The notes: generated by a model from the letters alone, not told the origin. 32,000 nucleotides of DNA from Nanopusillaceae archaeon (GCA_049974095.1 JBMFJD010000005.1:1-32000); one strand, 5' to 3'; numbered from the stretch's first letter, positions 3,529 to 30,973 are shown. Numbers and translations: made by a program.

Positions 3529-3603
3529 CGCCCCCGCGGGGATTCGAACCCCGGATCTCCAGGACCGAAGCCCGGAATGTTGTCCTGGCTACACTACGGG
3601 GGC
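3529..3603 (-). tRNA. tRNA-Arg (anticodon TCG)
   Basis: The minus strand reads GCCCCCG-TA-GTGT-AGCCAGGACA-ACAT-T-CCGGG-CTTCGGT-CCTGG-AGATC-CGGGG-TTCGAAT-CCCCG-CGGGGGC-G, a complete cloverleaf. Confidence 0.9.
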
Positions 3604-5112
3604 TCTATTATATATTTCTTCTAAATATTTTTTATAGTATTCATCAAAATATTGATCAAAATTATAATTTATATTATATTTTCTTGCTAAATAATTGTAT
3701 ATATCAATTACTCTTTTAGGATAATTTTTATTTGGTGAAGAATTTGCTAATTTTTTATATTCAAACATTTTACTAAATATATTTTCTCTTTTAATTTCTT
3801 TTTCAATTGAAAATTCATTTGATACATTATTTATTTCATATGTAGATTCGAATCTTCCAAAATTAAATTTTGCATATTCTTCCGGATTAAATACATTCAT
3901 TAAATAATCTGAAAAATACTTATCATATATTATATTTGGTAAAAATAATCCTAAAGATAGATATGGATTTATTATTGATGAATAATTATCTCCTAAAGGG
4001 ATATAAAATGAAATATCATTTAAATTAAATAAATTTGAAATATATCTAATATTTTTTCCTAAAATTGATAATTCTTCATATGAAATTTTTTCAATTATAT
4101 ATTTTGCTATATTATAATTTTTCTCAGAAGATATATTATTTATATCTAATGAAGGTTTTTCAATATCTTTTATATTTACTTTTCCCAAATTTATTCCTTC
4201 AAATATTAAACCTAAAATATATCCTAAATATAATGTATCTAGACCATATTTGTTTGAAGTATAAATTAAATCTGATATTAATTTTTCATCAAATATTCCA
4301 ATAAATGGTCCCAACATATTAAATGGCTCATATGGATAGTCTTTCTTTAAATTTCTTATTAATGGATCTATATAATCATTAAATAATTTTTTATTTTCTT
4401 CTTCACTTAAATATATATTTCTATAATTTAATAAAGGAATTTTTTCTGGTATTAATTCATATACATCTCTTATTGATTCATGATATTTTTCTTCCTCTCC
4501 AAATTCTAATTTCTTTATTTCAATTTTATTATCTCCTCCAATTGATAATCCTGTAATATTATGATAATTATATAATATTGATCCAATTCCACCTTTTGTT
4601 GCCTTTATTTTATCTCCTTCAAATATTATTAAATTTCCGTATATTGTATATTTTGATCCAAGTCCTTCTAATAAGATAATAAAATCTTTTCCAGAATAAA
4701 TATCCTTTAATGTATTATATAATTCTTCCTTTTTCTTAAAGATATCCTCTTGTATTTCATCTTCTAAAAATATAACATTATCATTTTCAATAATTAAAAA
4801 ATATTTCTTATCTGCTCTTCCTTTTAATATTATTAAATCATCTCCTGTTAATTTAATATATTTTCCAAATGAAGATAAACTTATATCTAAAGAATTTGTT
4901 ATTGGAGACCTATATATTATTAATGAATTTATGTTTTCTCTATCTTTTATATATCCTAAAGAAAATATTGTTAAATTATTTTCATATGGTTCCTTTTCAT
5001 ATGTTTTATATATATCTGTATGTAATTTTATTGAATAATTTAATGTTTTTTCTTCAATTAATTCATTTTTTATTTCTTTCTTATCAAGATCTATAAGCAA
5101 TGTTCTTATCAT
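3589..5112 (-). CDS. aldehyde:ferredoxin oxidoreductase (AOR)-family-like protein, cysteine-free
   Basis: N-terminal RTLLIDLDKKEI resembles the AOR N-terminal strand. TKGGIGSILYNYHNITGLSIGG resembles GGLGAVMGSKNLKAI.V.G. LGPFIGIFDEKLISDLIYTSNKYGLDTLYLGYILGLIFEG resembles the ..GLDTIS.G..IA.AME region. The 507 aa contain no Cys at all. Confidence 0.5.
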   Translation of the reverse strand: MIRTLLIDLDKKEIKNELIEEKTLNYSIKLHTDIYKTYEKEPYENNLTIFSLGYIKDRENINSLIIYRSPITNSLDISLSSFGKYIKLTGDDLIILKGRADKKYFLIIENDNVIFLEDEIQEDIFKKKEELYNTLKDIYSGKDFIILLEGLGSKYTIYGNLIIFEGDKIKATKGGIGSILYNYHNITGLSIGGDNKIEIKKLEFGEEEKYHESIRDVYELIPEKIPLLNYRNIYLSEEENKKLFNDYIDPLIRNLKKDYPYEPFNMLGPFIGIFDEKLISDLIYTSNKYGLDTLYLGYILGLIFEGINLGKVNIKDIEKPSLDINNISSEKNYNIAKYIIEKISYEELSILGKNIRYISNLFNLNDISFYIPLGDNYSSIINPYLSLGLFLPNIIYDKYFSDYLMNVFNPEEYAKFNFGRFESTYEINNVSNEFSIEKEIKRENIFSKMFEYKKLANSSPNKNYPKRVIDIYNYLARKYNINYNFDQYFDEYYKKYLEEIYNRAPVV

Positions 5113-5904: not shown

Positions 5905-7348
5905 ATGGATAAAAACTCCCGGTGCAATTTACATATATAATACATTAACAAAAGAAAAAGAAATATTTGAACCAATAGAATATCCTTTTGTAAAAATATA
6001 TCATTGTGGGATAACACCTTATGATTTTTCACATATTGGACATCTAAGATCGGAAATATCTTTAGATATAATAAGGAGGATATTTAGATTCTTTGGATAT
6101 ATTGATATAGTAATAAGTAATTTTACAGATATTGATGATAAAATAATAAAAAGAGCTAGAGAAGAAAATTTATTAAATAATTGGCATTCAATTCCAGAAA
6201 AATATATTAAATATCATTTGGAACAAATAAAAAGATTGAGAAATTTACCAATGCATATAAATCCATTAGTTACAGAACATATAAATGATATTGTAAATTT
6301 TGTAAAAGATTTAATTGATAAAGGATATGCATACAAAGGAAAATATAGCATTTATTTTGATGTAGATAAATATCAATATTATGGACAATTATCTGGAACA
6401 AAAAAAGAACAATGGAATCAGGAAAATGAATTTTTAGAAGATAAAAAACATCCATATGATTTTGCACTATGGAAATTTAAAAAAGAAGGAGAACCATATT
6501 GGAATACTGAAATTGGAGAAGGAAGACCTGGTTGGCATATTGAATGCTCTACAATGTCTTCAAAATATTTAGGAACCCAATTTGATATTCATTCTGGAGG
6601 TCAAGATTTAATATTTCCACATCATGAAAATGAAATTGCACAATCTGAATCAAGATTTAATATTCATCCATGGGTTAGATATTGGTTACACTTTGGATTT
6701 GTAAAAATTAAAGGAGAAAAAATGTCAAAATCTTTGGGAAATATTATCCCTGCAAAAGAATTTTTAGATAAATATGGAGAAGATATAACAAGATTTTATA
6801 TAAGTTCTTATCATTATAGAGAACCAATTGATATAAATGAAGAAAGTATAAACCAAGCTAAAGAAAATTATAAATATATAAGTTCAACAATAAAAACAAT
6901 TGTAAATGAGATAAATTCTTTAGATAGAGCATTCTATTTAGATGATAATAAACAAAAGATATGGAAAGAAATGTTAAATTATGAAAAAGAATTTGTAGAT
7001 AGTTTGAAAGATGATTTTAACACAGAAAAAGCAACAAAGATATTATTAGAATTTACAAAATATGTAAATAAAAATGTTATTGGATCTGAAACATTTACAT
7101 TATATTATACTGCATATGAATTTTATAATATTGCAAGTAAAATTTATGGATTATGGGAGGATATATTTTATGGAAAAGAAAGAGATAATAATCTAATCAA
7201 TAATTTAATAAATATAATAATAGAAGTTAGAAAAGAACTTAGAAAAAACAAAAATTATGAATTATCTGATAAAATAAGAGAAATGATGAGAAATATTGGT
7301 ATTGATCTATTAGATAAGGGAGAAGAGACAATATATAGATTTATATAA
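5905..7348 (+). CDS. cysS: cysteinyl-tRNA synthetase; the 5' end needs a 1-nt shift or a non-canonical start
   Basis: The frame of ORF 6218..7348 stays open back to 5888 and encodes IYIYNTLTKEKEIFEP..CGITPYDFSHIGHLR (HIGH at 6032-6043). KMSKS lies at 6719-6733, with GWHIECS and HHENEIAQ also present. The only ATG (5905) is one frame off. Confidence 0.88.
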
Positions 7349-12260: not shown

Positions 12261-12938
12261 ATGGATATAATAAATATCCCAACAAAATATAAAATAAAAG
12301 AAATAAAAAAATTGGAAGAATTAAAAAAATATTTACCGAAAAAATTTGGTTTAGTATCTATTACTCAATATAGAGATTATGCTAAAAAAATATATGAAAT
12401 ATTAAAAAATGAATATGAAATAATATTAAAGGAAGGATTATATGGAATAAATGTTTTAGGATGCTATTCTGAACCCGCAAATATTAATGATGTAGATACA
12501 ATATTATTAATTGGAAATGGAAAATTTCATGCAGAAAATATAATTAGAAAATTAAAGAAAAAAGTAATTGTATATGATCCAATATATGGAGAAATAAGAA
12601 TATATGAACCAGATTACAAATTTGATAATATTATTCAGTTTTTATTAAATAAATTAAAAAATTCAAATAATATTGGAATAATTTTATCAATAAAACCTGG
12701 TCAATATTATTATTTAGAAACATTAAAAGTAAAAGAAATATTAGAAAAAATGGGAAAAAATGTATATTTATTTATAGGAGATACAATAGATTTCTTACAA
12801 TTATTAAATTTCCCATTTATAGATTTTTGGATATTTTCTGCATGTCCAAGGATAATAGATGATGTAATTGATAGTAATATAAATGGAATAACAATAGATA
12901 TATTAATTAAAAATTTAGATAAAATTAGAAATACTTAA
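12261..12938 (+). CDS. dph2: diphthamide synthesis protein Dph2, short form lacking domain 1
   Basis: VLGCYS..ILLIGNGKFHAENI..IGIILSIKPGQ..FIDFWIFSACPRIIDD aligns to domains 2-3 of archaeal Dph2. It is 225 aa, versus about 340 in Pyrococcus Dph2 as I recall it. Confidence 0.7.
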   Translation: MDIINIPTKYKIKEIKKLEELKKYLPKKFGLVSITQYRDYAKKIYEILKNEYEIILKEGLYGINVLGCYSEPANINDVDTILLIGNGKFHAENIIRKLKKKVIVYDPIYGEIRIYEPDYKFDNIIQFLLNKLKNSNNIGIILSIKPGQYYYLETLKVKEILEKMGKNVYLFIGDTIDFLQLLNFPFIDFWIFSACPRIIDDVIDSNINGITIDILIKNLDKIRNT

Positions 12939-14924
12939 TATAGACTTTACAAATAGATATAAAGCTACAGATGATATTGCTGAAAATATTACAAATAATA
13001 ATGTATTAATAACATAGTATTTTGAAATATCGTAAAAAAATGATAACTTATCTCCACTATTTTCAATAGAGTTTATTGCATATATTATTATTAATGCCGT
13101 TAATTCATTAAATAATCCAATAATTATAATAATTGTTGGTGGGGAAACTATTCCATTTAAATTAAACATATTTAATATCATTGTAGGCAAAGAACTAACA
13201 TATGACGAATATTGAGAAGCACTAGAAGAGAATTGAGTTAATTGTTTTATTTGAATTGATAATGAATATAATATTTCAATTGTCATTATTGTAACTGCAC
13301 TTACTATTCCCAAAATTACTGGAGCCAACATCCTTAATAAAGATTTTAATTGAGAGATATCCTCTGCAACAAGATCTTTTATTCTTTCTTTTACTTTTTC
13401 TAATAATATAAAATATTTAGAAACTACAGCACCTACTAAAGAAGCTTCTGATGAAGATACTTTACTTGCTTCATATAATATTTCCATAGATGCTTTTAAT
13501 TGAGAAGATGGAACTTTCATTATTGCACCAACTTTTGGATCAAATATTGCATCATAAAATGGTAATCCTGATCTTAAATTCTGATATAATTTTGCTATTA
13601 CTTTACCTATAGGACTATCTTTATATCTAGGATATACATATGCTAATGCTTTTTCTAATGGATAACCTTCATTCAAAGCATTTCCAACAGATAATAAAAA
13701 AGATGGAAGATCTACCTCTATTTTTATCAGATCTTTATATAATTCTCTAAAATCATTATAATATAAAAAAGAACCAAAACCAATTGTTAATCCTATTAAT
13801 AAAACAAAAAATTCTGAGAAAATAATTCCAGCTAAATTATAATTAGAAATATAATTATATATCACTAGAACAATTAAGAAAAATAAGAAAATTGATAATG
13901 AAACTGCAGTAGAAAAAGCAATTAATTTGTTCTTTATATCCTTTTTCTTAATATAATAAAACAAATATATATCATCTGACGAAAAAATATTTAACATTTT
14001 TGAAGAAACAGAGTAATTTAAGAAGAAATATGAAAGAAAAGGAATTAATATATCAAATAATATAAATAATAATAATGGAGAAAACAAATTACTTAAAAAT
14101 ATTGATGCCAATGGAAATATTGTCAAAAGCATAACAGGTAAAGTAATTCCTAACATGCTAACTAAATTTACAGATGATCTAATCTCTCTTGCAAAAGCAT
14201 ATAATTCATTAATTAATTCTTCCAGAGATTCTTCTATAGATTTATCTATTTGGAAATTCCTCCTATCTTTATCAGGATCTAACAATGCTCCTTCTATTAA
14301 CATTATTCCTAAATAGAAAAATCTAGCATCAATTTCCCAATTTTTTGCATATTCTAATAATGCCTCTGATGCTGAAACATATTTTCTATTATATATATCT
14401 CTTAATAATCTTAGCAAATCTATTTTTAATGGCAAACCTATGTTTCTTGCAGAATAAATTAGTGCTTGTTCTACATTTGGATTTTGTCTTAATTTAATTG
14501 CTAAAAGTAACAAAAGATTAATTAATTGGGATTTTTTCCTTACTTTCAAACTATTATATAAAATTATATAATAATAATCAGTTAATATATATCCTAGTAT
14601 ACCTAAAAATAAAAAAAATACAAAATATATTGGAGAAATAAGCATTGAAAGGGCAATACCAAAGATTAAAGAAATAGTTAATAAAAATATTGACGCAGAA
14701 TCTATTTCATCAATACTTACATTTAATAATAATTCTGAATTTATTTTTTCAAATTCTTTTCTCTTTTTATCACTGCTTTTTAATTTAATTATATTTCCAA
14801 AAAATTTTACAATTTCTTCATAATATTTTACTTTATTTCCAAAATAAAAATATTTAAATAATTCTATTTTTTTATCTAGATTATTTAAATCTAAACCTAC
14901 TAGCTCAGTTTCTGGTATATCCAT
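12915..14924 (-). CDS. FlaJ/TadC-like polytopic membrane platform protein (two T2SS-F-like repeats)
   Basis: 669 aa with many TM helices and two cytoplasmic helical repeats (..ALIYSARNIGLPLKIDLLRLL.. and ..LSVGNALNEGYPLEKALAYV..LRSGLPFYDAI..). A 25-nt overlap couples it to the upstream ATPase gene. Confidence 0.75.
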   Translation of the reverse strand: MDIPETELVGLDLNNLDKKIELFKYFYFGNKVKYYEEIVKFFGNIIKLKSSDKKRKEFEKINSELLLNVSIDEIDSASIFLLTISLIFGIALSMLISPIYFVFFLFLGILGYILTDYYYIILYNSLKVRKKSQLINLLLLLAIKLRQNPNVEQALIYSARNIGLPLKIDLLRLLRDIYNRKYVSASEALLEYAKNWEIDARFFYLGIMLIEGALLDPDKDRRNFQIDKSIEESLEELINELYAFAREIRSSVNLVSMLGITLPVMLLTIFPLASIFLSNLFSPLLLFILFDILIPFLSYFFLNYSVSSKMLNIFSSDDIYLFYYIKKKDIKNKLIAFSTAVSLSIFLFFLIVLVIYNYISNYNLAGIIFSEFFVLLIGLTIGFGSFLYYNDFRELYKDLIKIEVDLPSFLLSVGNALNEGYPLEKALAYVYPRYKDSPIGKVIAKLYQNLRSGLPFYDAIFDPKVGAIMKVPSSQLKASMEILYEASKVSSSEASLVGAVVSKYFILLEKVKERIKDLVAEDISQLKSLLRMLAPVILGIVSAVTIMTIEILYSLSIQIKQLTQFSSSASQYSSYVSSLPTMILNMFNLNGIVSPPTIIIIIGLFNELTALIIIYAINSIENSGDKLSFFYDISKYYVINTLLFVIFSAISSVALYLFVKSILSISNFI

Positions 14925-17143
14925 CTTTTTAAATTTTCTAATATATATTCTTTATTTATTTCGCCATATTCTTTTATACTTTTATCTATAAATTGATAAA
15001 AAACTTCATTATATGGAGAAACAAACTCTGCTTCCAATATATCTTTTCTTCCTTTTTCTCTAGCAATATCTACTAATAATTTTTTAGATAATCCTATTGT
15101 TTCTACCATATTCCAAATTCTTTCCCATGATTTGGATAAATATTTTACTCTAGATGCAACTGCTTTTAATATATCAGAATCTCCATTTATTAACTCTAAT
15201 GTAGGTTCTAAATTATCTTTTTCAGGATCATAAACCATTAAATCTACAAAACCTCTTTCTCTCAATGGATCTTCTTCCCATAATTTTCTAACTTCTGTAA
15301 TTCTTAATACCCTTCTATATCTTTTTAATCCAGAAGGTTCCCTTATTGGATTAACCGTTACAATTATATCTGTAGCCTTAAAAGATGTTTTAGGAACACC
15401 TAAATCATTTACAACTCTATCATAAACACCATAAGGACTCTCAGCATGTAAAGTACCCATCACAGCATTTGCCATTGCACCAATTCTCATTGCTTCATAT
15501 AATGTTTGTGCTTCTTTAGATCTAACTTCTCCAACAATTATTGCACTATCACCCATTCTTAAGGAAACCCTTAATCCTTCATCAGCAGACAATTCTGCAG
15601 ATTTTAATGAAAAAGGACTTCTTACTTTCATTGGAACAATATTATATCCCAATGATCTAAAATAATCAGTAGGTATTTCTAATGTATCTTCCACAGTTAT
15701 TATTCTTACTTTTTTTGGTAATTCTAACATTAAAGAAGTTAATAAAGAAGTTTTTCCACTTCCTCTGGTTCCAGCAATTAATATTGCTCTTCCATTTGCT
15801 ACTAAAAATGATAATAAACCAGCAGCTAAATAATTTAGCATTTTATTATCTATAAACAATGGTAATGTCCATGGTTTACTTCTATGTCTTCTAAATACAT
15901 AGGATATTCCAAATGCTGATAGAGGAGGTGATAATGCTGCAACTCTTAATAAGATATTTTTTCCTATCATTAAATCTGTATCTAAAACAGGGTTTGCTTC
16001 ATCAAATGGTCTTCCAGAAACTAATCTTAATTTTGTAGCCCATGATTCAACTTCCCTTCTTGTTGGAGTTACATTTGTTATACACATTTCATAATCTGAA
16101 TGCTGTAATGAAATTGGAGTAATACCTGGAGGAGGATTAACAAATAAATCTTCCAATCTTTCATCTAATACTATTTTTTCTATAATTCCAAGCCCAATTG
16201 TATATCTAACTATTATACTTTTTAAAATATTATATTTATCCTCATTTAACTTTATATTATATAAAGAAACAAGTTTTGATAATATATTATCTAATAAATT
16301 ATCATATATTTCTCTTAATCTTTCTACATCTAAATAATCTTCCCTTTTAGGTTCATATTGTTGTAATATTTCTATTGCTTTATGCGCTAAAAATGTTTCT
16401 TCAGAAAATATTTTATATTCCTCTGGAAAAATATAATATCTAAAAACAGTTTCTTCAGGATTTTTTAATATAAATACTTCAGTATATTTATCTAATCTAT
16501 AAGATTCTATAACATTATAATTTTCCTCGATTTTACTAATATATTTTGTATCAATAAACCTTGGTTTTATATCTCCTAAAAATAATCTTCTATATATTTC
16601 CCTATTTCCAATTTCATACCCAACTAAGAATGGTTTAATATATTTAAAAAATGGTTGAGATTCAAATTTAATTAAAAAATTATCTACTAACGATAATATA
16701 TCCGATATTTGTTTTTCTAATTCTTTGTTATCTTTTAAAATTGCTAATAATTTTCTTTTAATTCTTTTTATATAAATATAAGTACCTATCGGATCCTTTA
16801 AATAATTTTTATCTAAAGCATTTATTATATTTTTAATTTCAGAATATAATATATGACCTGCCAATAAATATTGATAATATGATTTTACATTTTCTCTAAT
16901 TGAAAAATAAACATCTAAAAATGATAAAAGTATTTTTATTGTATCTTCATAATATGATATATTTTCATCTTGTTCAATTATTATTGTATTAACTGATGGA
17001 TCATTAGCTAATATATTTAAAATATATTCCATTATAACAGGATCATCTTCAATTGTTGCAATATTTTGATAGTTTTTAGCATCTATATATAATATTCTTT
17101 CTTTTCCATCTTTTCTTACCTCATATTGCAAATTTTCATACAT
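14900..17143 (-). CDS. FlaI/VirB11-family type IV filament/secretion ATPase with a long N-terminal extension
   Basis: Walker A GTRGSGKTS at about aa 458-466, Walker B/Glu AIIVGEVR and His box GTLHAESP. It is 747 aa, versus roughly 510-540 for typical FlaI. Confidence 0.85.
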   Translation of the reverse strand: MYENLQYEVRKDGKERILYIDAKNYQNIATIEDDPVIMEYILNILANDPSVNTIIIEQDENISYYEDTIKILLSFLDVYFSIRENVKSYYQYLLAGHILYSEIKNIINALDKNYLKDPIGTYIYIKRIKRKLLAILKDNKELEKQISDILSLVDNFLIKFESQPFFKYIKPFLVGYEIGNREIYRRLFLGDIKPRFIDTKYISKIEENYNVIESYRLDKYTEVFILKNPEETVFRYYIFPEEYKIFSEETFLAHKAIEILQQYEPKREDYLDVERLREIYDNLLDNILSKLVSLYNIKLNEDKYNILKSIIVRYTIGLGIIEKIVLDERLEDLFVNPPPGITPISLQHSDYEMCITNVTPTRREVESWATKLRLVSGRPFDEANPVLDTDLMIGKNILLRVAALSPPLSAFGISYVFRRHRSKPWTLPLFIDNKMLNYLAAGLLSFLVANGRAILIAGTRGSGKTSLLTSLMLELPKKVRIITVEDTLEIPTDYFRSLGYNIVPMKVRSPFSLKSAELSADEGLRVSLRMGDSAIIVGEVRSKEAQTLYEAMRIGAMANAVMGTLHAESPYGVYDRVVNDLGVPKTSFKATDIIVTVNPIREPSGLKRYRRVLRITEVRKLWEEDPLRERGFVDLMVYDPEKDNLEPTLELINGDSDILKAVASRVKYLSKSWERIWNMVETIGLSKKLLVDIAREKGRKDILEAEFVSPYNEVFYQFIDKSIKEYGEINKEYILENLKRWIYQKLS

Positions 17144-17176
17144 CTAATAAAATTAATATATTGCAGAATATTATAA

Positions 17177-17557
17177 ATGTATATGCCAGAGACAGATCTT
17201 TTGAGAAGATTAAAATATTTAGAAGAGAAAGTATCTATGTTCAATAATATAATACAAACTATTGACGTAACAACAAGAAACTCTTTGGAAGATATGAAAA
17301 GAGAACTAGAAGATATTAGAGAAGAAATAAAAGAAATAAAAAATGAAATAAATGATCTGGAAATAAAAGTAAAAGCAATAACTGATCAATTATCATTATT
17401 TGCTACTGTAGATCAAGTTAAAACAATAAGTTCTATTATAGATTATATAAATCCATTTGATTTCGTTACAAAAAAAGAAGTAGAAAAGATTGTTAAAGAA
17501 AAAATAATGGAGTATCTAAATGATGTATACAATATTGATAATCAAAAAACTCAATAA
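17177..17557 (+). CDS. coiled-coil protein, possibly FlaC/ArlC-like
   Basis: 126 aa. A heptad-rich segment is followed by LSLFATVDQVKTISSIIDYINPFDF, reminiscent of the ..NPF ending of FlaC_arch domains. This assignment is tentative. Confidence 0.35.
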   Translation: MYMPETDLLRRLKYLEEKVSMFNNIIQTIDVTTRNSLEDMKRELEDIREEIKEIKNEINDLEIKVKAITDQLSLFATVDQVKTISSIIDYINPFDFVTKKEVEKIVKEKIMEYLNDVYNIDNQKTQ

Positions 17558-17588
17558 ATTTATATACTTCAATGGTTTTATATAGATT

Positions 17589-18260
17589 ATGAGAGGTATA
17601 TTAGGATTATTTGGAGGAAAGAAAAATCAACAAAAAAGAACAGATCAAAATCAAGAGCAAGAGATATCATCATTATTTCAAGATTTTACAAATCAAGCAC
17701 CAATAAACCAGCAAAATTTTAACCAAAACTTTGGAAATAATTTATTTAATCAAGTACCGCCTCCATCATTTAATCAAATGCCTCAGCCACAACAACAAAA
17801 CCAATTTCAAAATTTTCAACCACAACCACCATTTAATTTACCTCAGCCACAACAAAATGTTCCACAAATAGTTCCTTCATCACCAAAAGAAGAAAATAAT
17901 TTAGATACTAGATTAGAAGAATATGTAAACACAACTGTAGAAAATATTGTAGGAGAAAAATTATCGGAAATAAGAGATGAGTTAACACAAATAAAAGTAT
18001 GGAAAGAAAAAATAGATTATTTAGTAAATAGATTGCAAGAACAAATAGATAAATTAGATAATAAAATACAAGAAATGGATAATATGGCTACTAAAAAATT
18101 AGAAGAATATGATAAAAGTATGCAAGAAACTTCTACAGAAATTCAAGCATTACATAGATTAATTAGAACAATGATACCTGCTATTTCTGAATCTACAAAA
18201 GAATTAAAAGAGACAATTGATGAATTAAAATCCTTAAGAGATTATATAAAGAGACCATAA
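17589..18260 (+). CDS. Q/N/P/F-rich low-complexity plus C-terminal coiled-coil protein (paralogue A)
   Basis: 223 aa. MRGILGLFGGKKNQQ is followed by about 90 aa of Q/N/P/F repeats (NQFQNFQPQPPFNLPQPQQN) and then about 125 aa of heptad coiled coil. Confidence 0.6.
   Translation: MRGILGLFGGKKNQQKRTDQNQEQEISSLFQDFTNQAPINQQNFNQNFGNNLFNQVPPPSFNQMPQPQQQNQFQNFQPQPPFNLPQPQQNVPQIVPSSPKEENNLDTRLEEYVNTTVENIVGEKLSEIRDELTQIKVWKEKIDYLVNRLQEQIDKLDNKIQEMDNMATKKLEEYDKSMQETSTEIQALHRLIRTMIPAISESTKELKETIDELKSLRDYIKRP
17796..17819 (+). repeat. 24-nt exact repeat shared with 26638..26661 (opposite strand)
   Basis: CAAAACCAATTTCAAAATTTTCAA encodes (Q)NQFQNFQ in both paralogues. Confidence 0.9.
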
Positions 18261-18289
18261 TTTTTTAATTTTTCTATCAATTTTTATTA

Positions 18290-18691
18290 ATGGATAAAAA
18301 TAAGGAAATAATTATTACAGCAATTACTTTATTAGCTTTATTAGGAGGTGGATTTATAATAGCACCATTTTTATATCCTATTTTCAATAGTCAAAATATA
18401 AATTTAAATCAGAATCAAATTTATCAAATATATCAAATAGAACAATATTGCCAATCTTTATGTTTATATGCAAAATATAATCTATCTGTTCAAAATCTAT
18501 TAAATTCCTGTTTATCATCTCCAAATTCAATACTATATAACTATTGGATTTCTGCAGGAGTAAATAATTGGGGATGTGAAGTATCTGAAAACTACTCAAA
18601 TCTATGCAACATAAATAATTATATTGTTTTAGATAATAATTGCAATATAATTGGTGTATTTTATAATAATAAGCAATTAAATATAACATGA
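18290..18691 (+). CDS. N-terminally anchored, Cys-rich putative surface protein
   Basis: 133 aa. MDKNKE is followed by the TM segment IIITAITLLALLGGGFIIAPFLYPIF. The ectodomain has 6 Cys and 3 N-x-S/T sequons (NLS, NYS, NIT). An ATGA overlap couples it to tatD. Confidence 0.55.
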   Translation: MDKNKEIIITAITLLALLGGGFIIAPFLYPIFNSQNINLNQNQIYQIYQIEQYCQSLCLYAKYNLSVQNLLNSCLSSPNSILYNYWISAGVNNWGCEVSENYSNLCNINNYIVLDNNCNIIGVFYNNKQLNIT

Positions 18692-19419
18692 AAATTATTG
18701 ATGCTCATTGTCATTTTGATAAATTTAGCAATATTGAAATAAAGAGAATTTTAAATAAATATGACAAAGATATAATAATTTTAACCGTTTCTGAAGATTT
18801 AGAATCTTCAATTAAAAATTTGACATTTAGTAAACTATATGAGAACATAATTCCTGCAATTGGCATACATCCTTGGAAAGTTGATAATGTTAAAGAAGAA
18901 GATATAAAATTTATTGAAAAAATAGTTAAAGAAGAAAAAATAAATATTCTTGGAGAAATTGGATTAGATAAGAAATTTAAACCAGATACATATGAAAAAC
19001 AAAAAGAAATTTTTGAAAAATTTTTAAAAATTGCAAAGGATTATGACTTAAAATTAAATCTTCATGCCCCAAATGCTTGGGATGATGTATTTAATCTATT
19101 AATAAAATATGATATTAAAAAAGCATATTTTCATTGGTATAGCGGAGATGAAAAGTTATTAGAAGAAATAGAAGAAAAAGGATATTTCATTGGTATAAAT
19201 GTATCTGCATTAATAAATAAAAAATATGAAAAATACATAGAAATAGCTAAAATAGATAATATAATAACAGAATCTGATGGCCCATATGAATATAAAGGAA
19301 TTATTCTTCATCCAGAAATGATAGAAAAGTTATATGATAAAATATCTGAAATTAAGAAAATAAAAAAGGAAAAATTATATGATATAATATTGAATAATTT
19401 TTCAAGATTTGTATATTAA
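18688..19419 (+). CDS. tatD: TatD-family metal-dependent hydrolase/nuclease
   Basis: IDAHCHFD, GEIGLD, NLHAP, FHWYSG and ITESDGPY are the TatD metal-ligand motifs, in order. Confidence 0.88.
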   Translation: MKIIDAHCHFDKFSNIEIKRILNKYDKDIIILTVSEDLESSIKNLTFSKLYENIIPAIGIHPWKVDNVKEEDIKFIEKIVKEEKINILGEIGLDKKFKPDTYEKQKEIFEKFLKIAKDYDLKLNLHAPNAWDDVFNLLIKYDIKKAYFHWYSGDEKLLEEIEEKGYFIGINVSALINKKYEKYIEIAKIDNIITESDGPYEYKGIILHPEMIEKLYDKISEIKKIKKEKLYDIILNNFSRFVY

Positions 19420-20095: not shown

Positions 20096-21253
20096 ATGAT
20101 ATATAAGACAAGAATATATGATTTAACTGATATATTTGAAAGATCAAATTCTAATTTAATAAGGAAAAATTTAGAGAAAGGATATAAAGTATATGGAATA
20201 AAGTTGGAAAAATTAAAAGGATTAATTGGTTTTGAAATATTACCAAATAGAAGAATTGGAACTGAATTATCTGATATAGCTAAAAGATTTGGACTTGGAG
20301 GAATATTACATTCTGACGAACTTCCAGGATATGGGATTAGTAATGAAGAAGTAGAAAAAATAAAAGAAAAATTAAATTGTAATGATAATGATGGATATGT
20401 ATTATTAATTTCTCCAAATTATGAAATTTCTAAAAAAGTATTTTCATTAATAATAAATAGAATAAATGAAATGATTATAGGAGTACCAAAAGATACAAGA
20501 CAAGCAAATGAAGATGGAACTACATCTTTTTTAAGACCTCAACCAGGTTCTGAAAGAATGTATCCAGAAACTGATCATCCATATATATTTATTGATAAAG
20601 AGATTGAGAATAAAGGAAAATATGAAATTATAAGATATAAAATAAGTTATGGAGATATAAGAGATATTTATGAAATATATAGATTAAAAGATTTTGACAA
20701 AGATTTATATTTAGAATTAATAAAAGAAGGAAAAGAAGTTTTAAATTCTATAGATCCAGAATTTATTAAAAAATTATTAAAAGAAATTGGCTTTAATGAT
20801 AAACAAATAGAAAATATAATATGGAATGAAAATATTTATCATATATTAAAATTATCAATAGACTTGGATCCTCAAACAATATATTATTTATTTTTTCAGA
20901 TGATTGGAGAAACAGAGAATTTATATAAAGAAAAAATAGAGGAATTAGATATAGATTTTATATATAAAATAAAGGATTACTTAAAAGAAAAAAAGATAGT
21001 AAGAAATGCTTTACCAATAATATATTATGAATATATAAAAAATAAAAAAGAAATAGAGGAAATAATAAAAGAAAAGAATTTATATAAAAGAAATACAGAA
21101 GAATTAGAAAAAGAAATAAAAGAATTCTTAAAAAATATAAATATAAATGATAAAAAGAATATTTATTCTAATGTATTTAGCAAATTTAAGTATGTAGCAG
21201 AAAGTGAAGATATTAAAAAAGTATTAGAGAAAATATTAGAAAATAAAAATTAA
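20096..21253 (+). CDS. gatE: Glu-tRNA(Gln) amidotransferase subunit E, C-terminal part only (split or truncated gene)
   Basis: IFERSNSNLIRKNLEKGYKVYGIKL..ILPNRRIGTELSD..GGILHSDELPGYGISNEEVEKIKEKL..GVPKDTRQANEDGTTSFLRPQPGSERMYPETDHP aligns from about residue 275 of full-length GatE. An in-frame stop at 20084-20086 closes the frame upstream. Confidence 0.85.
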   Translation: MIYKTRIYDLTDIFERSNSNLIRKNLEKGYKVYGIKLEKLKGLIGFEILPNRRIGTELSDIAKRFGLGGILHSDELPGYGISNEEVEKIKEKLNCNDNDGYVLLISPNYEISKKVFSLIINRINEMIIGVPKDTRQANEDGTTSFLRPQPGSERMYPETDHPYIFIDKEIENKGKYEIIRYKISYGDIRDIYEIYRLKDFDKDLYLELIKEGKEVLNSIDPEFIKKLLKEIGFNDKQIENIIWNENIYHILKLSIDLDPQTIYYLFFQMIGETENLYKEKIEELDIDFIYKIKDYLKEKKIVRNALPIIYYEYIKNKKEIEEIIKEKNLYKRNTEELEKEIKEFLKNININDKKNIYSNVFSKFKYVAESEDIKKVLEKILENKN

Positions 21254-25682: not shown

Positions 25683-26434
25683 AATAATATATCTATAAAA
25701 CTATTTCTTATGCCTGGTAAGAATCCCAAGTAAAATAACATTAAAAATAATACATCCTGTAGATCTTTATCTTTTATCCAATATTTTATATAAATTGCTG
25801 AAATAATTGTTAAAGATAATTTAATTGAATAAAAAATAAAGGGATTATGATATTGATAAATTAATAAATTTAATAAATTATGTTCTGAAGGTAAATTAAA
25901 TATAAATACTGATAAAATAGAAAAAACAGTTTCATATATTTCCCCAAGAAATGATAAAATAAACATTTTTTCTTTAAAAGAAAAATAAATAATTATAGAA
26001 ATTAAGAAAAAGAAAAATATTAAAGGAATTATATTAATTGGCCTTCCATATATAAAAAAAGGAATTTCTAAAATTAAAACAATTATTAAAAAATAAAAAT
26101 AAAATTCTCTATATTTATAAAAGAATAAAACTGGTAGAAATGCCAATAATATCCATAATTCTAATAATGGAGTAAAAAGTAGATATGTTTTAATTGTATA
26201 TCCTAAATCTATATTTACTCTAGGTATAATAAATATAATTGTTAAAAGAATTAAATCTAGCAAAAAATATTTGTCTATTAATACTTTCCTTTTTTTCACA
26301 AAGAAATAATAAAATAAAATAAAAACAAGAATAAATAAAAAACCATATAATAATGTATTATAGAAGTTATATTGATATTGGTAACCGATTACAGGATATA
26401 TAAAATATTTATAAAAAAACTCTTGTAAATTCAT
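25679..26434 (-). CDS. polytopic membrane protein, possibly DUF63 family
   Basis: 251 aa, about 7 TM helices. N-terminal FIYPVIGYQYQYNFYNTLLYGFLF resembles the DUF63 ..P....gYN.vnTl.Ya pattern. Confidence 0.5.
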   Translation of the reverse strand: MNLQEFFYKYFIYPVIGYQYQYNFYNTLLYGFLFILVFILFYYFFVKKRKVLIDKYFLLDLILLTIIFIIPRVNIDLGYTIKTYLLFTPLLELWILLAFLPVLFFYKYREFYFYFLIIVLILEIPFFIYGRPINIIPLIFFFFLISIIIYFSFKEKMFILSFLGEIYETVFSILSVFIFNLPSEHNLLNLLIYQYHNPFIFYSIKLSLTIISAIYIKYWIKDKDLQDVLFLMLFYLGFLPGIRNSFIDILL

Positions 26435-26769
26435 TAACGTCTAAACATATACTGATAATATTGCAGTAAAGTATTTAACAATGTAATTATATTATCTAAT
26501 TTATTTGCAATTAAATCTAACTTTGAATTTAATGCTTGAACCATTGTATTTAAATCATTTTGTGGTTGAGGTGGAAGATTTGGTAAATATGCTTGTGGAT
26601 TCAACTGACCAGGTTGCTGAAAATTATTTCCTTGAAATTGAAAATTTTGAAATTGGTTTTGAGGGAAATCATATGGAGGATTTGGCATTCCTTGTCCAAA
26701 TGGTTCATTAAGTGGTGGAAGATCTTCCTCATTTTTTTTAAATATATTCTTTATAAAGTCTAGTGCCAT
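26434..26769 (-). CDS. Q/N/P/F-rich low-complexity plus coiled-coil protein (paralogue B)
   Basis: 111 aa. MALDFIKNIFKKNEED is followed by PQNQFQNFQFQGNNFQQPGQLNPQ..PPQPQN and then the helical LNTMVQALNSKLDLIANKLDNIITLLNTLL. Confidence 0.55.
   Translation of the reverse strand: MALDFIKNIFKKNEEDLPPLNEPFGQGMPNPPYDFPQNQFQNFQFQGNNFQQPGQLNPQAYLPNLPPQPQNDLNTMVQALNSKLDLIANKLDNIITLLNTLLQYYQYMFRR
26638..26661 (-). repeat. 24-nt exact repeat shared with 17796..17819
   Basis: The plus strand reads TTGAAAATTTTGAAATTGGTTTTG, which is the reverse complement of CAAAACCAATTTCAAAATTTTCAA. Confidence 0.9.
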
Positions 26770-29320: not shown

Positions 29321-30973
29321 ATGTATGAAATTTTAAATGACATACTTAAAAGAAGCATATGGGAAATTACTTTAATCTTTATAGTTTCTCTCATAGCAAT
29401 TATATTGATTGGAATATATTTCCCAGTTTTAAAAGTATATTATCCAGTTTTATATGTTTTTGCAGTATCTCTTTCATTAGAAGTAGTCTTTATTAAATAT
29501 TATAAACTAAAGAATTCTTTAGATAAGGATTTACTTTATTATATTTCATATCTTTACTCATTATCATTTTCAACTTATAATATTAAAAATCTATTAGAAA
29601 TGTCAATTGAAGAAAAAAGAGAATTTAAGGAAATAAATAGTTATATGGAAAGAGTAGTTAATTTAGTTAAAAAATATAATTATACAATTCCAGAAGCTAT
29701 TAGATACGTTTTACCTTATGTTCCAAAGGATAATTTTAGAAGTTTTTTAGAGAGATTTGCTACTTCAATAGATATAGGGGAAGATATATCAGATTTTTTA
29801 TATAAAGAATATGAAAACGCTATTGCAGTTTATGAAGCAAATTATGAAAAAGGATTAGAAAATATAAGATTATTGGAAGATTTAATATTATCTTTAATAT
29901 CTTCTACAGGTTTTGCCTTTTCTTTAATACTTTTTATACCTTTTCTGGTAAATATAAACCTAGTTATCCTTTTATCAGATTTTTTTATAATATTTATTGT
30001 AGTAAATATTCTGATATATTATGTTTCCAAATATTATATACCTGACGATAGTATATGGTCAAGATCAAGTGAAAAACCAAAAGAATATAAAAATATTATA
30101 TATATGTTTTATTTTTTAGTCCTTCTATCTTATTTTTTATTCTTAATATTATTTTTAATTACAAAAATTCCTTTTTTAGCCTCTGTGGCAATTGCAATTA
30201 CTCCTTTAACATATGTAGGTTATAGAATGATAAACCTTGAAAAAATATTAAAAAATAAAGAAAATAAATTTCCAGCATTCTTTAGCAGTATAATTGAATA
30301 TTCTCAAATTTTTGGGAATAATCAAACAAAAATATTGGATAATGTAGTAATGCATGATTTTGGACAATTAAATGAGGATATAGATAAATTAAGAAAAAGA
30401 ATAAATATTACAAAAAATTATGAAAAATCATGGAGCTATTTTGTAGGAGAAATAGGAAGTAGATTATCTGAAAGAATAATTAAAGTATTTGAAAGAATAT
30501 TAGAATATAGTGGAGATACAAAAAAAGCTGGAGATATGCTATATAATATATTAATAAAGATTATTAATTTAAGAACTAGAAAAGAACAATTTATATCAAG
30601 TTTAAGGGGAATAGTATATGGTACATATATTGCTTTTGTTTCCATTTTATTTATAATGTTACAAATTACTTATAGTATGAATCAAATGTTTCAAGGAATA
30701 TCTACAGCACTAGGATCTACAACAATTACCCAAATAGGTATTAATTTATATACATTAAATATACCAATAGTTATCTTAAATATGTATGTATTTATTTTAT
30801 CTATAATTGAAGCTTTTATATTATCTTTTACAATAAAAAATATTGATGGAGGATCTAAATTTGGAGCTTTTATGGATATAACAATATTAATCTGGATTGC
30901 AGCATTATTAAATATAGGAATACACTACACATTTACATATATATTCTCTGGTTTATCCTTTGTAAAATTATAA
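29321..30973 (+). CDS. flaJ: FlaJ/ArlJ-type archaellum or pilus assembly platform membrane protein (orphan copy)
   Basis: 550 aa. Two T2SS-F-like cytoplasmic repeats (..YTIPEAIRYVLPYVPKDNFRSFLERFATSIDIGEDISDFL.. and ..FPAFFSSIIEYSQIFGNNQTKIL..) separated by TM bundles. Confidence 0.75.
   Translation: MYEILNDILKRSIWEITLIFIVSLIAIILIGIYFPVLKVYYPVLYVFAVSLSLEVVFIKYYKLKNSLDKDLLYYISYLYSLSFSTYNIKNLLEMSIEEKREFKEINSYMERVVNLVKKYNYTIPEAIRYVLPYVPKDNFRSFLERFATSIDIGEDISDFLYKEYENAIAVYEANYEKGLENIRLLEDLILSLISSTGFAFSLILFIPFLVNINLVILLSDFFIIFIVVNILIYYVSKYYIPDDSIWSRSSEKPKEYKNIIYMFYFLVLLSYFLFLILFLITKIPFLASVAIAITPLTYVGYRMINLEKILKNKENKFPAFFSSIIEYSQIFGNNQTKILDNVVMHDFGQLNEDIDKLRKRINITKNYEKSWSYFVGEIGSRLSERIIKVFERILEYSGDTKKAGDMLYNILIKIINLRTRKEQFISSLRGIVYGTYIAFVSILFIMLQITYSMNQMFQGISTALGSTTITQIGINLYTLNIPIVILNMYVFILSIIEAFILSFTIKNIDGGSKFGAFMDITILIWIAALLNIGIHYTFTYIFSGLSFVKL

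Follow-up and report, generated by a model that had tools for sequence, protein, structure and literature searches.

A candidate type IV filament machine with a conserved coiled-coil gene pair in Nanopusillaceae and Woesearchaeota

The locus described here occupies positions 12915-18691 of a 32-kb stretch of DNA (GCA_049974095.1 JBMFJD010000005.1:1-32000; hereafter the window) from a Nanopusillaceae archaeon, and its closest described relatives are the non-archaellar type IV filament systems of archaea. In the survey of these systems by Makarova, Koonin and Albers (2016; PMC4858521), an ATPase of the VirB11/FlaI superfamily with extra terminal domains is combined with a single-gene TadC-like platform and a cytoplasmic coiled-coil accessory protein. 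The nanoarchaeal ATPases fall outside the archaellum clade, in Clade 2 and subclade 4F, and their cognate pilins were not identifiable; subclade 4F has a dedicated cytoplasmic coiled-coil protein, arCOG07564. In the tables for Clades 2, 3 and 4, which also include N. equitans, Nst1 has three ATPases in Clade 2, one in Clade 3 (archaellum) and one in Clade 4 (PMC4858521). Non-archaellar type IV pilus ATPases with TadC homologues and no identifiable pilins are already on record for nanoarchaea (PMC4858521, PMC6142677). In the Thermoproteales, subsystem 4D likewise consists of an ATPase and a platform with no adjacent pilin gene (Sivabalasarma & Albers, 2026 preprint), and subsystem-specific N- and C-terminal domains of such ATPases have been proposed to be docking sites for accessory proteins (preprint 10.64898/2026.04.22.720090).

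The locus in the window shares this general plan, with cytoplasmic coiled-coil proteins that we call CC1 and CC2 as the accessory parts. We lean towards reading the region as the cytoplasmic and membrane core of a non-archaellar, pilus-type type IV filament machine, of a subtype peculiar to Nanoarchaeia (the class of DPANN archaea to which both Nanopusillaceae and Woesearchaeota belong). As a machine it is a lineage-specific variation on a known type, not a wholly new apparatus; what is new is the CC1/CC2 module, the N-terminal domain of the ATPase and the link to pilin clusters in Woesearchaeota, none of which we found described in the literature on these systems. Unlike the accessory genes of the Makarova systems, CC1 and CC2 form a two-gene divergent operon, are restricted to DPANN and belong to no Pfam family, and the CetZ and S-layer-like neighbours typical of subclade 4F are absent here. 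Subsystem 4D differs in being narrowly distributed and linked to a TFIIB-like factor, whereas the ATPase family of the window is widespread in Nanoarchaeia and some of its loci carry pilin clusters.

The open reading frame (ORF) listing of the window contains five ORFs for the module, with the coordinates, strands and lengths given in a preliminary description of this DNA. On the minus strand, the ATPase gene (14900-17143) overlaps the platform gene (12915-14924) by 25 nt, and on the plus strand lie CC1 (17177-17557), CC2 (17589-18260) and a third small gene, P3 (18290-18691). The ATPase and CC1 start codons are separated by an AT-rich intergenic region of 33 bp (17144-17176), presumed from its sequence to hold back-to-back promoters for leaderless transcripts; both the overlap and the gap are as first described. 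A short divergent gap is kept in Nanopusillaceae (14-92 bp), and in Woesearchaeota loci it is commonly 30-350 bp. The window has a G+C content of 22-24% and comes from a Nanopusillaceae metagenome-assembled genome (MAG) related to strain YN1 and Nanobdella. Its platform protein matches one from a 'Nanopusillaceae archaeon' MAG at 100% identity and YN1_0750 at 71%, while the ATPase shares 89% identity with its counterpart in strain YN1 and 77% with the one in Nanobdella aerobiophila.

The 747-aa ATPase belongs to the T2SSE/VirB11/PilB class of secretion-superfamily ATPases, with a Pfam PF00437 (T2SSE) match over aa 329-591 that scores 76.3 bits (cutoff 24.9; E=2.3e-21). The Walker A motif GTRGSGKT spans aa 458-465, and in an alignment of 15 sequences with 42-89% identity, K464, E485/D486, D532, E539 and H566 are invariant. 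With Walker A, Asp box, Walker B and His box all intact, the protein is a genuine member of the superfamily. The top NCBIfam match is the FlaI equivalog (NF058587; E=1.6e-36), which scores 126.2 bits against a cutoff of 550 and covers only aa 194-645, leaving approximately 190 N-terminal and 100 C-terminal residues extra. Among proteins of known structure, the A. fulgidus GspE-like ATPase 2oap (4e-39) and CpaF (3e-30) are matched better than FlaI (1e-19). Judged by these comparisons, the ATPase is not ArlI and is nearer to afGspE and CpaF than to FlaI, which argues that the ATPase and platform are not an archaellum motor.

Three parts can be distinguished in the ATPase: a family-specific N-terminal domain (aa 1-~193), a FlaI/GspE-like core of N- and C-terminal domains (~194-645) and a conserved helical C-terminal extension (~650-747). 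In an AlphaFold 2 model of aa 1-210 (predicted local distance difference test score, pLDDT, 89.9), the N-terminal domain consists of a small beta-beta-alpha-beta-beta unit and a helical bundle, and a structure search with this model found no fold match in the PDB (best E=0.64). A phmmer search with the N-terminal region against 1.84 billion representative sequences returned no more than 90 matches, which in nearly every case fell at the N-terminal end of the target protein. The solved relatives 2oap and CpaF, at 420-510 aa, do not have this domain. The Tad system to which CpaF belongs, with TadB/TadC, also differs in using two half-size platform genes and the TadZ/CpaE ATPase, not coiled-coil partners.

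The preliminary description had placed Walker A at about aa 460 and noted some 190 aa of additional N-terminal sequence, which is what we find, and had called the ATPase oversized; within its family, this size is not atypical. More than 4,000 database proteins match the ATPase, and the best 120 of these are approximately 740-775 aa long with 99-100% coverage, bar two partial sequences (667 aa) and one intein-bearing homologue of 917 aa. Relatives occur in at least 595 species (scan with one genome per species), and the best 80 of those loci are all from Nanopusillaceae or Woesearchaeota-type MAGs and conserved over the full length. Approximately 750 aa is thus the normal size of this family. 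The 917-aa homologue (P0025) carries an intein-splicing Pfam domain, and five other proteins (P0338, P0345, P0357, P0360 and P0379; 1264-1783 aa) begin with the same N-terminal domain as the window ATPase; all six are probably intein-containing versions. In 19 Woesearchaeota loci, an ORF of 46-53 aa resembling ribbon-helix-helix proteins (..ISATIDE.LI.WI...YRNKSHLIE.A...L; for example L005 7766-7906 (+) and L006 166-309 (+)) lies directly upstream of the ATPase gene on the same strand. It is likely a transcriptional regulator dedicated to this system, and the window has no counterpart.

Compared with the archaellum, in which ArlI and ArlJ operate with ArlX or ArlCDE, the locus has an ATPase and a platform of the same superfamilies and cytoplasmic coiled-coil accessories. 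Unlike in archaellum loci, no arlH, arlF, arlG, arlB or archaellin gene is found near the ATPase, CC1 and CC2 have no FlaC or FlaD/E match, and the true ArlJ is encoded apart: the only ArlJ-like gene of the window lies 12 kb away and alone, at 29321-30973 (+), beside the ribosomal protein L4 operon. It is the second, normal-sized flaJ of the preliminary description, a full-length ArlJ/FlaJ homologue (E=1.6e-92), and the window contains no other arl gene.

The 669-aa polytopic platform protein, encoded directly downstream of the ATPase, is treated as a very divergent member of the GspF/PilC/TadC/FlaJ class. Its Pfam match to T2SSF (PF00482) is below threshold, at 19.6 bits against a cutoff of 25.2 (E=9.6e-4, aa 409-512), and among its relatives T2SSF is matched in 2 of 30 (E<0.01), while precomputed PF00482 annotation exists for 2 of 87 database relatives. 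A PDB sequence search found no match. The assignment is instead made from a fold model, topology and gene context, despite the thin sequence evidence. The AlphaFold 2 model is all-helical (pLDDT 80.7), and Foldseek finds its soluble domains to be locally like the cytoplasmic domain of EpsF (2vmb/3c1q; probability 0.85-0.91, TM-score 0.59-0.66). The layout, with one transmembrane (TM) segment, a soluble domain of ~130 aa, a second TM segment, a soluble domain of ~140 aa and three final TM segments, parallels that of the window's ArlJ. In 56 of 67 loci the platform gene directly follows the ATPase gene on the same strand, often overlapping it, and the JGI annotation of the protein is TadB-type Flp pilus assembly protein. 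The earlier label of a FlaJ/TadC-like platform is supported by topology, local fold and position next to the ATPase, and not by the sub-threshold Pfam match.

To see which neighbours accompany the ATPase, 80 loci around its orthologues were collected and their ORFs searched iteratively. CC1 and CC2 lie upstream of the ATPase gene and divergent from it in 7/7 Nanopusillaceae loci and in 35/51 Woesearchaeota-type loci, the latter count restricted to loci whose sequence extends 3 kb or more upstream. The divergent orientation with CC1 followed by CC2 is thus present in 42 of the 58 loci with enough flank, and the arrangement seen in the window is conserved in relatives; overall, CC1 is found upstream and divergent in 52 loci, and CC2 follows it in 47. 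As the ATPases of the Woesearchaeota-type loci are only 42-45% identical to the query, retention over this distance indicates a real functional linkage of CC1 and CC2 to the ATPase and platform. Of the proposal that a small-gene operon is tied to the pair, the part concerning CC1 and CC2 holds, but the third gene, P3, is specific to Nanopusillaceae and no part of the core.

Neither protein has a TM segment. In CC1, a 126-aa cytoplasmic protein, a coiled coil leads into a conserved motif at the C-terminal end, KYI-x-x-W/F-x-P-x-x-FVT-x-x-EVE, and E16 and P93 are invariant in an alignment of 33 sequences. A CC1 profile search gave 513 matches, all of them hypothetical Woesearchaeota, Nanoarchaeota or DPANN proteins without Pfam domains. 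CC2, a 223-aa cytoplasmic protein, starts with the motif M-x-(G)LFGKK, which is followed by a P/Q-rich linker and a conserved C-terminal helical domain of ~115 aa; Woesearchaeota CC2 proteins have a small helical domain in addition. The Q/N/P-rich region reported earlier is indeed present (22 Q, 16 N and 14 P within 90 aa), and K124, W138/K139, Y174/D175 and A187 are conserved in an alignment of 35 sequences. Pfam scans and a PDB search yielded no meaningful match for CC2 (35 family members); the PDB hits obtained, a phage tail fibre and a phosphoprotein, were set aside as coiled-coil noise. For CC1 (33 family members), the Pfam scan gave sub-threshold coiled-coil noise only, with no consistent FlaC_arch or FlaD/E match. 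Since no consistent Pfam or PDB relative exists, the earlier comparison of CC1 to FlaC is unsupported: the INPF motif on which it was based is at aa 90-94 of 126 and not terminal, and FlaC_arch and Arch_fla_DE are not matched by the window CC1 and CC2 and are not among the families matched by several of their 33 and 35 relatives. Aligned profile to profile, CC1 matches the C-terminus of CC2 over 95 columns (hhalign probability 65%, E=6e-5), a match that coiled-coil composition can inflate, and on this basis the two are probably paralogs.

A 111-aa ORF elsewhere in the window, at 26434-26769 (-), is built like CC2: it begins with an MALDFIKNIFKK motif, continues with a stretch rich in Q, N and P and has a short coiled coil at the C-terminus. 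Its neighbours are the genes for ribosomal protein S2 and for a DUF63 membrane protein. It was missed by the CC2 profile, and equivalents of 114 aa in Nanobdella and 90 aa in Nanoclepta lie at the same position. In 33-34 Woesearchaeota loci, a family of membrane proteins with the N-terminal motif G-x-x-DVLLPFLLIFTIVFA-LQKTK-LG and ~4 TM segments is encoded just past CC2 on the ATPase strand, as in L005 3611-5389 (+), where three tandem paralogs of ~165-200 aa are found. These proteins are absent from Nanopusillaceae loci, and their ~4 TM segments, lack of a basic leader and lack of a Pfam match rule them out as pilins.

The link to filaments comes from orthologous loci. In five of them, all from Woesearchaeota, prepilin-like genes with class III signal peptides directly follow the platform gene on the same strand: ten in L059, six in L055, three each in L084 and L029 and two in L082. 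Their products have a hydrophobic helix and a cleavage motif of the form KKG| or KRG|Q; the background frequency of such genes is 4.5%. As CC1, CC2 and the long ATPase are all present in these five loci too, the system as a whole is probably, from gene content, a machine of the filament type, with subunit genes that stay linked to it in some lineages but are dispersed in others. The window itself would belong to the latter case, and the lone ArlJ gene illustrates how the genes of filament systems are scattered in this genome; most likely, the missing pilin reflects the same scattering. The preliminary description, which spoke of a module with no pilin and of undescribed composition, was thus right about the window, but the two to ten class III genes after the platform in orthologous loci weaken that reading.

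Two further observations concern these and similar clusters. Within the L059 pilin cluster, the gene at 15934-17055 (+) encodes a protein in which a Peptidase_M23 domain (E=7e-8) is joined to a class III, prepilin-like signal peptide (MVKG|Q...); this might be a hydrolase of the cell wall that the pilus machine secretes or displays. In the Woesearchaeota locus L044 (602-9835 (-)), the long ATPase has a second type IV pilus-like cluster at its back. Encoded in that cluster are another ATPase, of 511 aa, a half-size TadC-like protein of 269 aa that the platform profile search found, an adjoining protein of 339 aa and class III proteins.

P3, the last of the three small genes, encodes a 133-aa protein with a single TM segment at aa 7-25 and a predicted extracellular domain. 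It has the six Cys and three N-x-S/T sequons of the earlier account, the cysteines (C54, C58, C74, C96, C106 and C118) being invariant, and is confined to 9 loci, all Nanopusillaceae. P3 is collinear with a small Cys-rich class III pilin-like family of the Woesearchaeota loci, sharing the TM helix, a CxxxC motif and further Cys, with its Met1 aligned at the cleavage site of that family in what is a weak match (hhalign probability 20%, E=1e-3). This collinearity and the report that two nanoarchaea lack a prepilin peptidase (PMC4858521) raise, but do not establish, the idea that P3 is possibly a leaderless pilin-like subunit. A TatD-family nuclease gene at 18688-19419 (+) shares its first 4 nt with the end of P3, and the order of the divergent operon is therefore probably CC1-CC2-P3-TatD; P3 and TatD are adjacent in Nanobdella (L001) and Nanoclepta (L003) too. 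A 101-aa antisense ORF (18384-18689 (-)) wholly inside P3 is almost certainly a chance ORF of AT-rich sequence.

In the machine that we propose, the 747-aa ATPase would act as an ATP-driven hexamer docking on the cytoplasmic domains of the 669-aa GspF/TadC-like platform, and the two together would draw out subunits anchored in the membrane, to be polymerised or displayed on the outside of the cell. CC1 and CC2, transcribed divergently and presumably co-expressed with the motor from the shared 33-bp control region, may form a hetero-oligomeric scaffold or regulator around it, with a role like that of ArlX/ArlCDE or PilM/N/O, which they do not resemble in sequence. The basic-hydrophobic N-terminal motif of CC2 could bind the membrane or the extra N-terminal domain of the ATPase. 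Filament subunits would be encoded elsewhere in the scrambled genome, with the Cys-rich P3 perhaps one of them. Complex formation, the scaffold role and the filament output in this organism are what we infer; the family membership of the ATPase, the conserved linkage of the genes and the pilin clusters of orthologous loci are direct observations.

Several results weigh against a filament machine. No ORF of the window has a canonical class III signal peptide, and clusters of two or more pilin-like genes are present in only 4 of the 44 loci whose sequence runs on for 3 kb or more past the platform; L082, the fifth locus with such a cluster, has too little downstream flank to enter this count. 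The sequence evidence for the platform is weak, with T2SSF below threshold and no hhalign signal between the platform profile and the window's ArlJ. The possible inflation of the CC1/CC2 profile match and the prepilin peptidase reported missing in two nanoarchaea count on the same side.

With these points in mind, a filament-free device has to be considered, in which the ATPase and platform have been repurposed for secretion, membrane remodelling or host contact and the coiled-coil proteins and P3 are the working parts. In essence the preliminary description read the module in this way, and the pilin-less subsystem 4D offers a parallel. The lack of pilins in the window and in most orthologous loci fits this, as do the N-terminal ATPase domain, novel and without a known fold relative, and the dedicated, conserved cytoplasmic partners. 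Pilin-less pairs of this kind have been read as repurposed remnants (2026 preprint), and the components of the attachment organelle of YN1 and Nanobdella are not known (PMC11420986). However, the operonic clusters of class III pilin-like genes occur in loci with the same ATPase architecture. Moreover, scattered pilin genes are common in archaea, scattered genes in general are usual in scrambled nanoarchaeal genomes, as the ArlJ gene at 29321-30973 shows, and Nanobdella has several extra archaellin-like proteins elsewhere (10.1101/2023.10.27.564410). We therefore think a filament-free device unlikely, though it is the alternative to be taken most seriously.

A more specific and doubtful proposal concerns the attachment organelle itself. 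Cryo-electron tomography (cryo-ET) of YN1 has shown a cone, a portal and a 6.6-nm filament, together termed the 'attachment organelle', the protein components of which are not known (PMC11420986); the organelle has been seen by cryo-ET in both strain YN1 and Nanobdella aerobiophila. The long ATPase is not mentioned in the cryo-ET papers on YN1 (PMC11420986) and Nanobdella. Conceivably, the module is the assembly engine of the host-penetrating filament and of the gate of this Nanobdellota organelle, with CC1 and CC2 as a cytoplasmic gate or scaffold and P3 as a leaderless, disulfide-rich pilin where there is no recognisable prepilin peptidase.

We consider it improbable that the system is a competence-like pilus that scavenges nucleic acids, importing DNA from the host or the environment into an organism that cannot make its own nucleotides. 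The TatD-family nuclease gene overlapping P3, adjacent to it in Nanobdella and Nanoclepta as well, would suit such a role, and in 27 Woesearchaeota loci a gene for an SSB-like OB-fold protein is found just downstream of the platform. However, the whole Nanopusillaceae neighbourhood is syntenic, so that the TatD adjacency there means little; outside Nanopusillaceae, TatD lies close to the system in only 2 loci, the SSB gene is on the opposite strand, and no ComEC/ComEA-type channel was seen.

The same synteny, which extends over the entire 20-kb Nanopusillaceae neighbourhood, means that adjacency there proves nothing by itself, and the coiled-coil operon might be an unrelated neighbour kept by inherited gene order. 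The Woesearchaeota-type loci make this very improbable. There, the housekeeping neighbours of Nanopusillaceae are not kept, and the linkage of ATPase, platform, CC1 and CC2 is the one most widely retained: the platform accompanies the ATPase in 77 of 81 loci, CC1 in 52 and CC2 in 47, and the next two families, both Woesearchaeota-specific, in 33 and 27. Orientation and gene order, kept in the 42 of 58 loci mentioned above, point the same way.

That the pair is the archaellum motor ArlI/ArlJ can be discounted almost entirely: the submitters' name 'flagella-related ATPase FlaI' for the YN1 and Nanobdella proteins (P0001, P0003), the rank of FlaI as top NCBIfam match and the archaella of YN1 and Nanobdella (PMC11104419, PMC11420986) speak for it, but the equivalog score far below cutoff, the closer relation to afGspE and CpaF, the separate full-length ArlJ in the window, the absence of ArlH, ArlF, ArlG and ArlB genes nearby, the distinct Clade-3 ATPase in the Nst1 tables and the name 'type II/IV secretion system ATPase subunit' given to relatives by the NCBI pipeline all agree with the preliminary description that it is not.

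Elsewhere in the window, three housekeeping genes appear split or truncated, at 6218-7348 (+), 12261-12938 (+) and 20096-21253 (+): a CysRS that starts at profile position 86, a Dph2 fragment covering positions 78-279 of 308 and a GatE-like GAD-domain protein. Gene splitting is typical of Nanoarchaeota genomes. A 507-aa ORF at 3589-5112 (-) has weak matches to the N- and C-terminal domains of aldehyde:ferredoxin oxidoreductase (1.5e-9 and 4e-6) and is possibly a degenerate metabolic enzyme, unexpected in such a genome.

DPANN archaea live attached to other cells, and the machines that make this contact are almost entirely unidentified. The four-gene core of ATPase, platform, CC1 and CC2 is conserved from thermoacidophilic Nanopusillaceae to Woesearchaeota of groundwater, and it provides concrete candidate genes for the cultivable systems YN1 and N. 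aerobiophila. Should the coiled-coil pair prove to be a new motor scaffold, or the system to build an attachment filament, a real gap would be filled; otherwise, the locus would define a well-delimited new subtype for the classification of type IV filaments.

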